Shown piece by piece: positions 5,047 to 12,548 of a stretch of 64,000 nucleotides of DNA. Every line of letters starts with the position of its first letter. Position 1 is the stretch's first letter. This DNA is from Dehalococcoidia bacterium (GTDB lineage: Bacteria; Chloroflexota; Dehalococcoidia; Lucifugimonadales; UBA3495). The stretch covers positions 2,827,295 to 2,891,294 of the forward strand of contig CBDBHA010000002.1 of assembly GCA_965205495.1 (NCBI GenBank), in the 5' to 3' direction. The notes below the pieces were generated by a model. The model made no database searches. It was not told the origin of the DNA and was given only the letters and a program-made list of their open reading frames with translations. The translations under genes and the position numbers were made by a program.

Positions 5047-6342
5047 TTGACATCTACCGCTCCCGAAAATCCGCCGGTTCCCGGGGAAGAAAAACCCACG
5101 GGTGAAAAATCCCAGCGGGCCTACCGCGAAACTAGGTCCTTCGTCTCCCTCCGCGACTACCCCAACCACCGCTACCTCTTTGCTGGCAACCTCTTCGCCA
5201 ACGCCGCCCAATGGCTCCAGTTCATCACCATCGGCTGGCTGGCCCTCGACGTCACCGGTTCCCCCTTCCACTCCATCATGGCCGTGGCCGTCCGCGCCCT
5301 GCCAACCCTGTTCCTCGGACCCTGGGGCGGCGTCCTGGCCGACCGCTGGGACCGCCGCCGTTTGGCCATGGGAGCCCAACTTGGCCTCGCCGCCGCCGCC
5401 TTCGGCTTCGCCTGGCTGGTCGCCACCGGTCAGGTCGATTCCCCAGTATACGTCTACGCCTACACCCTGGTCTCCGGCATCGGGTTCGCCATCGTCCAAC
5501 CCGTCCGGCAGGCCCTCATCGCCAACACCGTCCGTCCCGAACACATGGGCAATGCCTTCGCCGTCAGCGCCCTGGCCGTCACCTCCATGCGGCTGGTGGG
5601 CGCCGGGACCGGCGGGATCCTCATCGAGACCCTCGGCTTCCAATGGAATTTCTTCGTCGAGGCCGCCCTATTTACCCTGATGGTCCTTCTGCTCATCCCC
5701 ATGAAGACCCCTTACCAGGAACCCAGCACCGCCCGCCAACACTCTCCTTTGGTCAACCTCCGCGACGGCCTCGCCTTCATCTTAGGCAACCGCCTGATGC
5801 TGCGGCTGATGCTCCTCAACTTCGTCCGCACTGGCATTTTCTCTCCCCTGCTGCTCCTTCTCCCCTCCTATGCCTCCCAAGCCCTCAACGCCGGCGCGGG
5901 AGTGGGGGCCGCCATGATAGTCAGCATGGGCATCGGCGGCGTCACCGCCACCTGCATCATGTCCGCCTGGGGATTCCTCACCCGAAAGGGACTGATGGTG
6001 TTGTTAACCTTAATCTCCGGGTCCACTGTTATGGCCGTCTTGGGGTTCTCCCAATGGATTTGGCTGTCGGTGCCCGTCATGGTGGTCATGGGCCTCTCCC
6101 AAAGCCACTTCATTGTCGCCAACCAGACCCTGGTCCAAAGTTTGGTCCCCGATACTCTGCGGGGCCGGGTGACCAGCGTCTGGAGCTACGAGCAGGGCCT
6201 GATTCCCCTGTTCTCCGGCGCCATCGGCCTGCTGGCTACCGTTATCGGCATTTCCTGGTCCATGGTCTGCTTCGGCCTGGGCGCCGTCGCCCTCAGCGTC
6301 TTCTTCCTGCTCACCTTCAAGGACATCCGCGCCCTGGAATAA
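5047..6342 (+). CDS. MFS transporter (EntS/MFS_3-like)
   Basis: Multi-TM hydrophobic profile, LADRWDRRR in loop 2-3 and an EntS-like N-terminus. The TTG start comes from the track and is uncertain. Confidence 0.8.
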   Translation: MTSTAPENPPVPGEEKPTGEKSQRAYRETRSFVSLRDYPNHRYLFAGNLFANAAQWLQFITIGWLALDVTGSPFHSIMAVAVRALPTLFLGPWGGVLADRWDRRRLAMGAQLGLAAAAFGFAWLVATGQVDSPVYVYAYTLVSGIGFAIVQPVRQALIANTVRPEHMGNAFAVSALAVTSMRLVGAGTGGILIETLGFQWNFFVEAALFTLMVLLLIPMKTPYQEPSTARQHSPLVNLRDGLAFILGNRLMLRLMLLNFVRTGIFSPLLLLLPSYASQALNAGAGVGAAMIVSMGIGGVTATCIMSAWGFLTRKGLMVLLTLISGSTVMAVLGFSQWIWLSVPVMVVMGLSQSHFIVANQTLVQSLVPDTLRGRVTSVWSYEQGLIPLFSGAIGLLATVIGISWSMVCFGLGAVALSVFFLLTFKDIRALE

Positions 6343-8201: not shown

Positions 8202-9236
8202 ATGTCCACCAGCCCCATCCGCTCCAACATCGTCGAGACCAGCGACACCATCGAGGCAATCGAAGAATGCTACGCCCTGGGCTGGAGCGACGGCCTCCCC
8301 GTGGTTCCGCCCGAGGAGTACAAGGTCCGCCAAATGCTGGCCTATTCCGGCATGACCGGCGAGGAGGAACTCCTCTCCCTGGACATGCGCCGCCGCGTGC
8401 TCACCTCTGAAAACGCCGCCGCCAACGCCGTCATGGCCGGCTGCCTTCCCGAGTATTTCCCGGTCCTCGCCACCACCCTCCGCGCCCTGGACGAGGAAAA
8501 GAACTTCGTCCACATGGCCGCCGCCTCCACCAGCTCCCCCAGCATCCTGATGATCGTCAACGGCCCCATCCGCCACCAAATCGGCATCAACTCCAAGGAC
8601 GGCCTCTTCGGGCCCGGCTTCCGCGCCAATTCCTGCCTGGGCCGCGCCGTCCGTCTCTGCTTCATGAACGGCTTCGATGCCTGGCCCGGCACCCTGGACC
8701 GGGGCACTCTGGGCAACCCCACCAAGTACACCTTCTGCATCGGCGACAACGAAGAGGACTCCCCCTGGGGGCCCCTCCACGTTAGCCGAGGCTTCCAGGC
8801 CGAAGATAGTTGCGTCACCACTGCCGTGGCCTATAACGCCATCACCGTCAACAACCGCTACAGCAGCTCCGGCCGCGACATCCTGCTGTCCCTAGCCGAC
8901 ACCATCAAGTCCACTGCCCTCTCTCACCGCTTCCCCGCCGAATGGGTGGTAGTCTTCGGCCCCGAACACGCCATCGCCCTCCAGCAGGACGGTTGGTCCC
9001 GCCGCGGCATCCAGGAATTCCTCATCGAGAACACCGCCCGCTCCCGCTCCGAACTAATCAGGTTGGGCGCCAAAATGGGCCCCGAACACCCCGGCGACGA
9101 TCAGCTTATGCTCCGTTGCGCCAACGAACCCGAGGAAATCCTGATAACCCTGGGCGGAGGCACCGGCGGCCGCTACAGCGCCATCATCGACACCACCGGC
9201 TTCAAAATCCGCACCCGCAAAATAGACTTCCCCTAA
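8202..9236 (+). CDS. Conserved hypothetical protein (family not recognised)
   Basis: ATG 8202 follows GGAGAGAGA. The 344-aa product has protein-like composition and conserved-looking blocks GWSDGLPVVPP, NAVMAGC and GPGFRAN. Confidence 0.6.
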   Translation: MSTSPIRSNIVETSDTIEAIEECYALGWSDGLPVVPPEEYKVRQMLAYSGMTGEEELLSLDMRRRVLTSENAAANAVMAGCLPEYFPVLATTLRALDEEKNFVHMAAASTSSPSILMIVNGPIRHQIGINSKDGLFGPGFRANSCLGRAVRLCFMNGFDAWPGTLDRGTLGNPTKYTFCIGDNEEDSPWGPLHVSRGFQAEDSCVTTAVAYNAITVNNRYSSSGRDILLSLADTIKSTALSHRFPAEWVVVFGPEHAIALQQDGWSRRGIQEFLIENTARSRSELIRLGAKMGPEHPGDDQLMLRCANEPEEILITLGGGTGGRYSAIIDTTGFKIRTRKIDFP

Positions 9237-11119: not shown

Positions 11120-11940
11120 CCAGCCCCGCCGGTTCAGGTACAGGTTAATATGACGGCACAAGGTACATTGGGTGAGCGCGTCAGCAGGCTTGAAGGGTCT
11201 TATGAACACCTGGCGACCAAAGCTGACATTGCCGAGGTAAAATCCGACATCGCTAGGGTAGAAGGGAAAATCGCAGGATTAGAGACAAAAATTCACAACT
11301 TTAGAATCAAGACTGCTTATCCGCCTTGGCGGGCTTATCTTGGTCGCTTCCGGGCTTGTAGTCGCCATCCTCCGCCTTTGGCCCTAAAATGGCTCCCTGG
11401 GGTCAACTTAACCGGCAAAAGTTTGTAGTTCCTGCCCCGCAGGGTCGAGTACGGGTTTAATATGACAACACAAGGAACATTGGGAGAGCGCGTCAGCAGG
11501 CTCGAAGGTTCTTACGAACATCTGGCGACCAAAGCTGATATTGCCGAACTAAAATCGACATCGCCAGGGTAGAAGCTAAAATGGCTCCCTCGGGGTAGAA
11601 GGGAAAACTCAGGGGTAGACCGGGAAAAGTTTGTAGTTCCTGCCCAGGGGTCGAGTAAAATCGACTGACTGGAATCCCGCCAAGGAACACGCGTCAGCAG
11701 GCTCGAAGGTTCTTACGAACATCTGGCGACCAAAGCTGATATTGCCGAACTAAAATCCGACATCGCCAGGGTAGAAGCCAAAATCTCGGGTGTAGAAGGG
11801 AAAATGTCAGGGGTAGATGGGAAAATCTCAGGATTGGAAGCTAAAATCGACTCCCTGGAATCCCGCCTTCTGATCCGCCTTGGCGGGCTTATTCTGGTCG
11901 CTTCCGGACTTGTAGTCGCCATCCTCCGCCTTTGGCCCTG
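11120..11940 (+). repeat. Degenerate tandem triplication of a small coiled-coil / C-terminal-TM protein gene
   Basis: Three copies of ...GTLGERVSRLEGSYEHLATKADIAE(V/L)KSDIARVE... start near 11150, 11462 and 11690. About 30 nt of upstream sequence is shared. Confidence 0.85.
11150..11428 (+). pseudogene. Copy 1 of the coiled-coil gene; C-terminal TM tail is out of frame
   Basis: Copy 1 has 43 nt where copy 3 has 42 between AAAAT and ATCCGCCTTGGC. As a result the tail LLIRLGGLILVASGLVVAILRLWP is encoded in the +1 frame. Confidence 0.5.
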
Positions 11941-11951
11941 AATGACCCAAA

Positions 11952-12548
11952 ATGTCTCAGGAATTAAAAAGTTGCAGGTGCGTTATGGCAGAGACAGTAA
12001 CCGTTAGAAATATGAGGCTGGTCAGCCCCAAGGGCCTCGACTTGGACCCGGGCAACTTTAACCTAAACCAACGGCCCACCGACCTCAGCGGCAAACGCCT
12101 GGGCCTCATGGAAAACTCCAAGGACAACTCCGACAAGCTCCTTTACGAACTTGGCGAAATTCTAAAGCAGAAGTACGACCTGGCCGAGGTCAAATACTTC
12201 AGCAAACACCACGCCTCCGTCCCCGCTAAACCCGAGGTCATCCAGAGCGTCCTCGACGAGGTGGACGTTCTCATCACCGGCGTCGGCGATTGAGGCTCCT
12301 GCAGTTCGTGCAGTGTGCACGACGGCATCGAAATGGAGAAGTTGGGAATCCCCACCGCCTCTATAGTCACCCACGTTTTCATCAACACCGCCAACGCCAT
12401 GACCAAGATGATGGGCGTTCCCGATTTCGACTACGTGGTGGCCCAGCATCCCCTCTCCAGCCTCAACGAGCAGGAGATTAAAGAACGCGCCGCCCAACTG
12501 GCCCCCGAAGTTGAGCGCATCCTCCTGGGTAGCAACGCCGATGCATGA
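11952..12548 (+). CDS. UGSC-family protein, probable selenoprotein (in-frame TGA at 12291-12293)
   Basis: Track ORFs 11952-12293 and 12315-12548 share one frame. Read-through gives GVGD-U-GSCSSCSVHDGIEMEKLGIP. The start could be ATG 11952 or ATG 11985. Confidence 0.7.
12301..12326 (+). promoter_or_regulatory. Candidate bacterial SECIS hairpin
   Basis: GC(A)G-[bulged T 12305]-TCGTGCA-GTG-TGCACGA-C(G)GC. The loop G and U lie 23 and 24 nt from the U of the UGA. Confidence 0.55.

Follow-up and report, generated by a model that had tools for sequence, protein, structure and literature searches.

An in-frame UGA and a conserved coding-region hairpin mark a probable selenoprotein gene of the UGSC family in a Dehalococcoidia bacterium

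The 64,000 nucleotides of DNA that were analysed here (a single stretch, referred to below as the window) contain a gene at 11985-12548 that very probably specifies one selenoprotein of 187 residues, a member of the UGSC family from the Dehalococcoidia (Chloroflexota), in which an in-frame UGA would be decoded as selenocysteine (Sec) by way of a hairpin in the mRNA just downstream of it. Neither the family nor its recoding is new; descriptions of the family go back to the marine selenoproteome surveys of 2005-2008. The "UGSC-containing protein" was described by Zhang and Gladyshev as a major predicted selenoprotein family in the Global Ocean Sampling (GOS) data, with 255 Sec forms as against 21 Cys forms and with an 'Unknown_1' domain fused to UGSC (PMC2398784, PLoS Genet 2008), and the family is listed in a review of 2022 (PMC9312934) and in another of 2026, the latter with the model NF041046 (PMC13188914). 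Since both the family and the mechanism are known, the identification of this gene is a correct rediscovery whose practical value lies in the repair of an annotation. The evidence for it is presented below, together with observations on a second gene that accompanies the UGSC gene in many genomes and might be informative about its function.

The gene came to attention through a reading of the nucleotide sequence by itself (the sequence-only reading), in which two open reading frames, 11952-12293 and 12315-12548, were joined across the TGA at 12291-12293. On inspection, the two do share one frame with no further stop between them, and reading through the TGA yields the peptide that had been given, ...DVLITGVGD-U-GSCSSCSVHDGIEMEKLGIP...; the tryptic peptide that spans codon 103 would be ...VLITGVGD-U-GSCSSCSVHDGIEMEK. 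The start of the frame has to be moved from 11952 to the ATG at 11985 (MAETVTV...), where the homologues and the public gene calls begin. On the length of the homologues (102 aa) and on these calls we take 11985 to be the true start, from which 102 codons precede the UGA, as compared with 113 from 11952. Translation of the 187-codon gene would end at a second TGA, 12546-12548. It had also been foreseen that gene callers would split such a gene, and this is what has happened: public assemblies list a 102-aa and a 77-aa product, the latter beginning at the GTG at 12315 in the gene calls for the same species, and each of these two fragments matches the Pfam model PF24696. The features of the locus are collected in Table 1.

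Table 1. Features of the UGSC locus and of its conserved neighbour, in window coordinates
Feature	Position	Strand	Remarks
Complete UGSC-family selenoprotein gene	11985..12548	+	187 codons, Sec at codon 103 (predicted)
In-frame UGA, putative selenocysteine codon (U of U-G-S-C)	12291..12293	+	Aligns with the Cys of homologues
C-terminal 84 codons, translated only upon UGA read-through	12294..12545	+	In frame, conserved in all orthologues
Core SECIS element (candidate)	12306..12322	+	7-bp stem UCGUGCA/UGCACGA, GUG loop, 12 nt 3' of the UGA
Extended hairpin as drawn in the sequence-only reading	12301..12326	+	Predicted in the window sequence, not a conserved feature
Gene for a 344-aa protein without family assignment	8202..9236	+	Motif GW[ST]DGLPVVPP, near-invariant Cys81

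Membership in the UGSC family, which the sequence-only reading had put forward, is confirmed by profile searches. With U read as C, the window protein scores 151.9 bits against NF041046 (titled "UGSC family (seleno)protein"; curated cutoff 125) and 187.4 bits against PF24696 ("UGSC family"; cutoff 25), and both models are matched by all 24 of the members that were aligned. A homologue search over 5.8 billion proteins returned 104 relatives of two kinds. The close relatives (50-99% identity) are nearly all 102 aa in length, align with no more than 55% of the query and have ...GVGD as their very last residues, these gene calls having been cut short by the same UGA. The full-length relatives (177-293 aa) are 30-48% identical to the window protein, and in the alignment that had been suggested as a check on them the UGA column is occupied by Cys in 14 of 14 full-length homologues, always within an invariant GD-C-GSC. 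There is no essential difference between the window gene and the UGSC family as it is known. The U/C-G-S-C motif falls in the same alignment column, the length class is the same (~180 aa), the Sec forms outnumber the Cys forms here as they do in the GOS data, and the lineage is again of an aquatic or marine type; the public records for this species, however, split the gene in two.

The in-frame UGA is itself a conserved character. A scan of genomes, restricted to one genome per species, located 36 loci, of which 35 are from metagenome-assembled genomes (MAGs) of Dehalococcoidia or other Chloroflexota and one is from a MAG of the Deltaproteobacteria. At 35 of the 36 the homologous codon is TGA, followed by ~85 conserved in-frame codons and then by a genuine stop; the exception (L033) has undergone an in-frame deletion of 21 nt that removes GVGD-U-GS. 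An orthologue with 92% identity lies on the MAG chromosome OY762444.1. A scan of metagenomes added 80 further loci, and the TGA-type orthologues from genomes and metagenomes together comprise 94 distinct sequences. For the 68 distinct genes that could be compared without gaps, the Nei-Gojobori dN/dS is 0.147 over codons 1-102, ahead of the UGA, and 0.136 over codons 104-187, after it (0.149 when the codons of the hairpin are left out). The two values are alike, and the part of the gene that follows the UGA is therefore under the same purifying selection at the protein level as the part that precedes it, which argues against simple termination at the UGA as well as against a pseudogene. A single in-frame stop, viewed alone, does have the look of a nonsense mutation or sequencing error in an ordinary Cys-type gene, but this explanation deserves next to no credence, given that 35 of 36 independent genome assemblies share this TGA and 94 distinct sequences have it altogether, that 18 public contigs carry it together with the identical N-terminal protein, and that selection downstream of it is as strong as selection upstream.

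The hairpin described in the sequence-only reading lies directly 3' of the UGA. The coordinates of its upper stem, in which TCGTGCA (12306-12312) pairs with TGCACGA (12316-12322) around the GTG loop at 12313-12315, are correct, and RNAfold agrees with the structure. The loop G and U are indeed at +23 and +24 and the spacing from the UGA to the stem is the 12 nt that had been counted, so placed that the loop follows the UGA at a distance of 19 nt. The three lower pairs that had been drawn beneath this stem (G12301-C12326, C12302-G12325 and G12304-C12323) are found by RNAfold in the window sequence but are not conserved in orthologues: among 30 representative orthologues, the 12301-12326 pair is unpaired in 17 and the lower-stem pair 17-36 of the alignment is unpaired in 5. 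The bulged T12305 has to be given up as a conserved feature, as orthologues have U, C or G at this position. The upper stem-loop is conserved nearly without exception, with 7 of 7 pairs in 93 of the 94 distinct TGA-type sequences and the GUG loop in all 94, and the upper 7-bp stem is the sole helix in the RNAalifold consensus.

Measured in isolation, the 17-nt stem-loop has a folding energy of -8.2 kcal/mol (z = -3.3) that was equalled by none of 200 shuffled sequences, and in contexts of 40-90 nt the z scores lie between +0.1 and -1.3 (-1.3 at 50 nt, +0.1 at 90 nt). Folding energy alone sets the hairpin beyond chance only in part, and it is the comparative evidence that gives it significance. 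No stable structure follows the terminator TGA at 12546-12548 (z = +0.7). A search of Rfam over the window gave no match at gathering thresholds, and at 12260-12380 it gave nothing relevant at E values up to 10.

The peptide that follows the UGA is near-invariant, so that conservation of its nucleotides proves little, and for this reason the synonymous sites were examined. Across the TGA-type genes these sites are near saturation (dS about 1.1-1.5). Among 163 codons that are degenerate and conserved in amino acid in the 68 sequences, only 6 show zero synonymous variation, and four of the six are the consecutive codons 108-111 (TCG TGC AGT GTG), which make up the 5' arm and the loop of the hairpin; the chance of an invariant run of at least four codons is about 1e-4. 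A fifth is the GAT directly 5' of the UGA, present in 68 of 68 sequences. Synonymous variation is free in the flanking codons, which are found as GGC/GGG/GGA/GGT, TCC/TCT/TCG/AGC, AGT/AGC/TCG/TCC, GGC/GGA/GGG/GGT and ATC/ATT/ATA. The 17-mer is unchanged in a group of members at only 42-47% protein identity (L120-L127), and all of the Sec-type sequences that were examined, among them members with as little as 36% protein identity, have kept the element nearly as it is. Two of the rare departures from it preserve pairing: a CAC to CAT change in the stem keeps a G-U wobble, and in the deltaproteobacterial locus (L036) TGG replaces TGC in one arm and GTC replaces GTG in the opposite arm, which amounts to a compensatory swap of C-G for G-C. 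Support from covariation is thin (one compensatory pair) because the hairpin hardly varies, and the argument for a helix therefore rests on the suppression of synonymous variation.

These observations also bear on the possibility that the locus yields two polypeptides, a 102-aa protein ending at the UGA and a 77-aa protein initiated at the GTG at 12315, whose halves might assemble non-covalently. Public assemblies call exactly these two ORFs, and the GTG is invariant among the orthologues. This GTG is also the loop of the hairpin, and its invariance is explained by that position, with no need for it to serve as a start codon. No purine run resembling a Shine-Dalgarno sequence precedes 12315. 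Between the UGA and the GTG lie seven codons (GSCSSCS) that are conserved as protein and align with the CGSC of Cys homologues that are contiguous; were they untranslated, the U/CxxC centre would be lost. The TGA, moreover, is kept in all 94 distinct sequences with no drift to TAA or TAG. We consider the production of two separate polypeptides to be very unlikely, and favour a single polypeptide with Sec at codon 103.

Genes that carry Cys at this codon allow the hairpin to be compared with the presence of the TGA. In seven distinct Cys-type sequences between 2 and 7 of the stem pairs can form, all seven pairs form in one, and the GUG loop is found in none; by Fisher tests, the association with TGA has p = 4e-8 for the stem and p = 6e-11 for the GUG loop. 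One of these genes (L041), which has TGC in place of TGA, specifies an identical SCSSCSV peptide through different codons that leave only 4 of 7 pairs. In two of the seven the hairpin is still a good one, with 7 of 7 pairs in L043 and 6 of 7 in L042, and both a constraint from the peptide and a relic of an earlier SECIS element were therefore considered. The peptide may contribute part of the constraint on the hairpin region, and the hairpins of L043 and L042 are plausibly fossil SECIS elements that have outlived a conversion of Sec to Cys, in a family where Sec forms dominate.

The candidate element resembles bacterial SECIS elements in several respects. The bSECISearch-type model put forward by Zhang and Gladyshev in 2005 reportedly places the apical loop ~16-37 nt from the UGA, allows it 3-14 nt and is said to call for a G within its first two positions; the hairpin at 12306-12322, with 19 nt to the loop and a 3-nt GUG loop, fits these criteria. 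A 3-nt apical loop is the shortest that the published model would admit. In the SECIS element of E. coli fdhF, a hairpin within the coding region just 3' of the UGA, the stem begins 11 nt from this codon, as against 12 nt in the window gene. The two elements share the G and U at +23 and +24 of the loop, which are invariant in the orthologues studied here, the G at the first position of the apical loop and the constraint on synonymous sites. They differ in that the window hairpin has a loop of 3 nt (GUG) and a lower stem and bulged U that are not conserved, so that the contact with SelB that is attributed to the bulged U of fdhF has no conserved counterpart in the UGSC genes.

In the window and the related loci, TGA is otherwise used as an ordinary stop codon. 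It ends 8 of the 46 long ORFs of the window, in one case within a 4-nt overlap of stop and start, and 146 of 319 long ORFs in the related loci. With TGA acting as a stop elsewhere and as the terminator of the UGSC gene itself, this pattern of stop-codon usage rules out a genome-wide reassignment of UGA. Among 126 in-frame TGA codons that were screened in the window as candidates for a second selenoprotein gene, the sequence is coding-like on both sides at 12291 only.

A more local form of recoding would be the reading of codon 103 as a standard amino acid (Cys, Trp or Gly), through near-cognate decoding stimulated by the hairpin or inefficient termination by RF2. It would be in keeping with the modest share of TGA among the stops of the window (only 17%) and with the outcome of searches for Sec machinery in the window and the related loci scanned. 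No selA, selB or selD was found by tblastn with E. coli SelA, SelB and SelD in the 64-kb window and ~0.6 Mb of related loci, a sample too small to be informative where genomes measure 2-5 Mb, and ARAGORN detected no tRNA-Sec in the 64-kb window (whose tRNAs are tRNA-Ala and tRNA-Arg only) or in the 36 related loci. Against such a reading, UGA terminates other genes in the window and its relatives as well as the UGSC gene, at 12546, the layout of the hairpin is that of a bacterial SECIS element, and the family is documented as one of Sec and Cys forms. A codon for Cys, TGC or TGT, is one mutation away, yet TGA has stayed fixed at this position despite a dS of about 1.1-1.5. Insertion of a standard amino acid is thus highly improbable, and decoding as Sec is the reading that we retain. 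Sec decoding is supported at the level of the lineage, since the database BSepDB, which admits a species only when at least two genes of its Sec pathway are present, counts MAGs of the Dehalococcoidia, which have 46-49 selenoproteins, among the bacteria richest in such proteins (PMC13326102). For the UGSC family, neither 75Se labelling nor a peptide spanning the site is reported in PMC2398784, PMC13188914 or PMC9312934.

Expression of the gene might be pictured as follows. On arrival at codon 103, the ribosome would decode the UGA as selenocysteine instead of stopping, as the mRNA that begins 12 nt downstream would fold into the 7-bp, GUG-loop hairpin and act as a bacterial SECIS element, recruiting SelB with GTP and Sec-tRNASec to the ribosome. 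At the second UGA, which has no such element after it, translation would end. That SelB actually inserts Sec at this codon is what we infer from the sequence comparisons described above.

The Sec residue, in its U-G-S-C(-S-S-C) motif, would lie where a beta-strand meets the N-terminus of an alpha-helix, within an alpha/beta domain that is flavodoxin-like. The picture is drawn from an AF2 model of a Cys homologue, P0024, that is 46% identical to the window protein; the model, a confident one (pLDDT 87, pTM 0.82), consists of repeated parallel beta-alpha units and places Cys94, the equivalent of the Sec, between strand 86-92 and helix 95-110. The best matches to its fold in the PDB, by Foldseek, are WrbA, MsuE and the flavodoxin domains of flavodiiron proteins, all with TM < 0.5, and a search of PDB sequences with the UGSC protein returned nothing meaningful. 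A thioredoxin-like fold had been guessed for the family (PMC2398784), whereas the present model looks flavodoxin-like. In some UGSC proteins (P0075, P0089) there is in addition a C-terminal NifU-like domain. If the model is a fair guide, the position of the Sec would be typical of a redox-active selenenylsulfide/dithiol (CxxC) centre. The UGSC protein is most likely a small catalytic subunit with a redox or nucleophilic role, and it probably works together with the 344-aa protein that is encoded nearby.

A possible hint of function comes from selenoprotein B of the glycine/sarcosine/betaine reductases and from PrdB of D-proline reductase. The model for GrdB (glycine reductase selenoprotein B), TIGR01917, is weakly matched by 12 of 24 UGSC members (best E = 7.7e-4), while PrdB is weakly matched by 4 of the 24 and GrdF by 3. 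Residues 90-165 of the window protein align with the Sec-bearing region of GrdB-type models, at positions of about 335-410. The scores against the GrdB/PrdB models (TIGR01917, TIGR01918, TIGR04483 and NF040794) are 12-17 bits as against cutoffs of 65-800, which places the UGSC proteins outside these families as they are now defined, and none of the UGSC members scanned matches the Pfam model GRDB (PF07355). The motif of GrdB is of the U-x-x-C(-x-x-C) type; the UGSC protein has this type of motif in common with GrdB/PrdB, as it probably does a separate partner subunit. It differs in being less than half the length of GrdB and in having a putative partner that is unrelated to the annotated Grd or Prd subunits. 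No grd or prd gene was seen near the UGSC gene among the Pfam matches of the genes called within ~10 kb.

The partner in question would be the 344-aa protein. For 29 of the 35 UGSC loci from Dehalococcoidia, the flanking sequence that was retrieved includes its gene, on the same strand as UGSC, and it also flanks UGSC in the deltaproteobacterial locus L036 and in 4 of 5 Cys-type loci. Many of the Dehalococcoidia loci have the match to the 344-aa protein ending roughly 130 nt ahead of the UGSC start; in the window, inserted genes put ~2.7 kb between the two. In L041, L043 and L045 the Cys-type UGSC gene is overlapped or directly adjoined by a gene whose product shares 35-39% identity with the 344-aa protein (E = 1e-55 to 1e-72), and by tblastn homologues of this protein adjoin UGSC in L044 (E = 2e-50) and in the Sec-type locus L036 (E = 1e-46). 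The linkage spans the Chloroflexota, a MAG of the Deltaproteobacteria and a Citricoccus genome, and it may be a new observation.

The 344-aa protein has >5000 homologues, and those that are named in their sources are nearly all called "hypothetical protein". It has no match in Pfam or NCBIfam. Its structural model is fairly confident (pLDDT 81), and no relative was found in the PDB either by fold (Foldseek, TM at most 0.3) or by sequence. Many Arg, Asn, Glu, His and Ser residues are invariant in the family. We put forward, as a tentative proposal that is rather less probable than its negation, that the UGSC protein, instead of being a thiol oxidoreductase that stands alone, is the small, Sec-bearing subunit of a two-component enzyme, with the 344-aa protein as the other component, and that it is a distant and minimal relative of the Sec region of GrdB/PrdB.

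For the annotation of these genomes the consequence is immediate. In public assemblies of the species, as in about a hundred clusters of related proteins, the gene is present as fragments of 102 aa and 77 aa, and the remedy is to merge these into a single CDS in which codon 103 is given a translation exception for selenocysteine. With respect to Sec recoding as such, nothing is added to existing knowledge; the hairpin, for its part, shows very cleanly how an RNA element inside a coding region can be detected through the suppression of synonymous variation. The pairing of UGSC with the 344-aa protein, together with the weak GrdB/PrdB-like signal, offers a starting point for the function of a family that ranks among the most abundant selenoprotein families of the environment. 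If the two-component proposal is true, the two genes would represent a widespread reductase module of marine and soil Chloroflexota and Actinomycetota, to which some members have added a NifU-like domain.

The aspartate codon directly 5' of the predicted selenocysteine (Sec) UGA is GAT in all 68 of the 68 sequences compared, whereas the other Asp codons of the UGSC gene are mostly GAC, and this difference suggests that a U at position -1 of the Sec-UGA might be a requirement of the recoding context. Hairpins at the position homologous to the predicted SECIS element also occur in two Cys-type genes, in which the Sec position is TGC: all 7 of the 7 pairs can form in L043 and 6 of 7 in L042, where the hairpin is built from other amino acids (S-G-S-V-L-D). 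It is possible that both are fossil SECIS elements left after a recent Sec-to-Cys conversion. In L033, a Dehalococcoidia orthologue (JAGWBI010000006.1), a 21-nt in-frame deletion has removed exactly GVGD-U-GS. The Sec codon is gone from this gene, and CSSCSVHD, the peptide encoded by the downstream hairpin, is retained together with its CxxC (CSSC). The deletion could be natural, in which case L033 is a variant that has lost Sec, or it could have arisen as an artefact of assembly.

The stop codons of the 46 long ORFs in the window (21 TAA, 17 TAG and 8 TGA) are unusual for DNA of 62% GC and a GC3 of about 0.8. TGA accounts for 17% of these stops as compared to 46% in the related Dehalococcoidia loci L001-L035 (Fisher p = 2e-4). 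The UGSC orthologues themselves seldom end in TGA (2/30, against the 46% background); unlike most of them, the window copy does.

A gene for a 344-aa protein is linked to the UGSC gene on the same strand in Chloroflexota MAGs, one Deltaproteobacteria MAG and Citricoccus. The two genes directly adjoin in many of the loci, but are set apart by ~2.7 kb of inserted genes in the window. Searches of Pfam, NCBIfam and PDB yielded no relative of the 344-aa protein. Duplicated copies of a small gene precede UGSC in the window, and the repeats there include two 85-nt copies that are 89% identical and a 116-nt sequence present three times. The C-terminal tail sequence common to the copies of the duplicated gene lies in another reading frame in the first. 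ORF lengths here differ between contigs of the same species (92 aa vs 64 aa), which suggests copy-number variation.

Features of the window and of the compared UGSC loci
Feature	Locus	Position	Strand	Remarks
344-aa protein gene	window	8202-9236	+	motif GW[ST]DGLPVVPP
Relatives of 344-aa protein	L041	1-1004
	L043	1615-2618
	L045	1543-2546
	L036			downstream of UGSC gene
Inserts between 344-aa gene and UGSC	window			PhdYeFM antitoxin, luciferase-like monooxygenase, small ORFs
Duplicated small gene	window	11150-11942	+	coiled-coil, transmembrane tail; just upstream of UGSC
85-nt repeat	window	11304-11388; 11858-11942
21-nt (heptad) tandem repeats	window	11769-11847
Asp codon 5' of Sec-UGA	window	12288-12290
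Cys-type hairpins	L043	about 1290-1330
	L042	about 500-540
Deletion	L033	around 6280-6300
UGSC gene of P0089	L041	1001-1831

Some Cys-type UGSC proteins (P0075 and P0089) carry a C-terminal fusion to a NifU-like domain (PF01106), and this fusion could be either identical to or distinct from the one with 'Unknown_1' in the Global Ocean Sampling selenoproteome study (PMC2398784). The presence of this domain on some members of the family hints at a tie between UGSC and Fe-S cluster or thiol redox chemistry.
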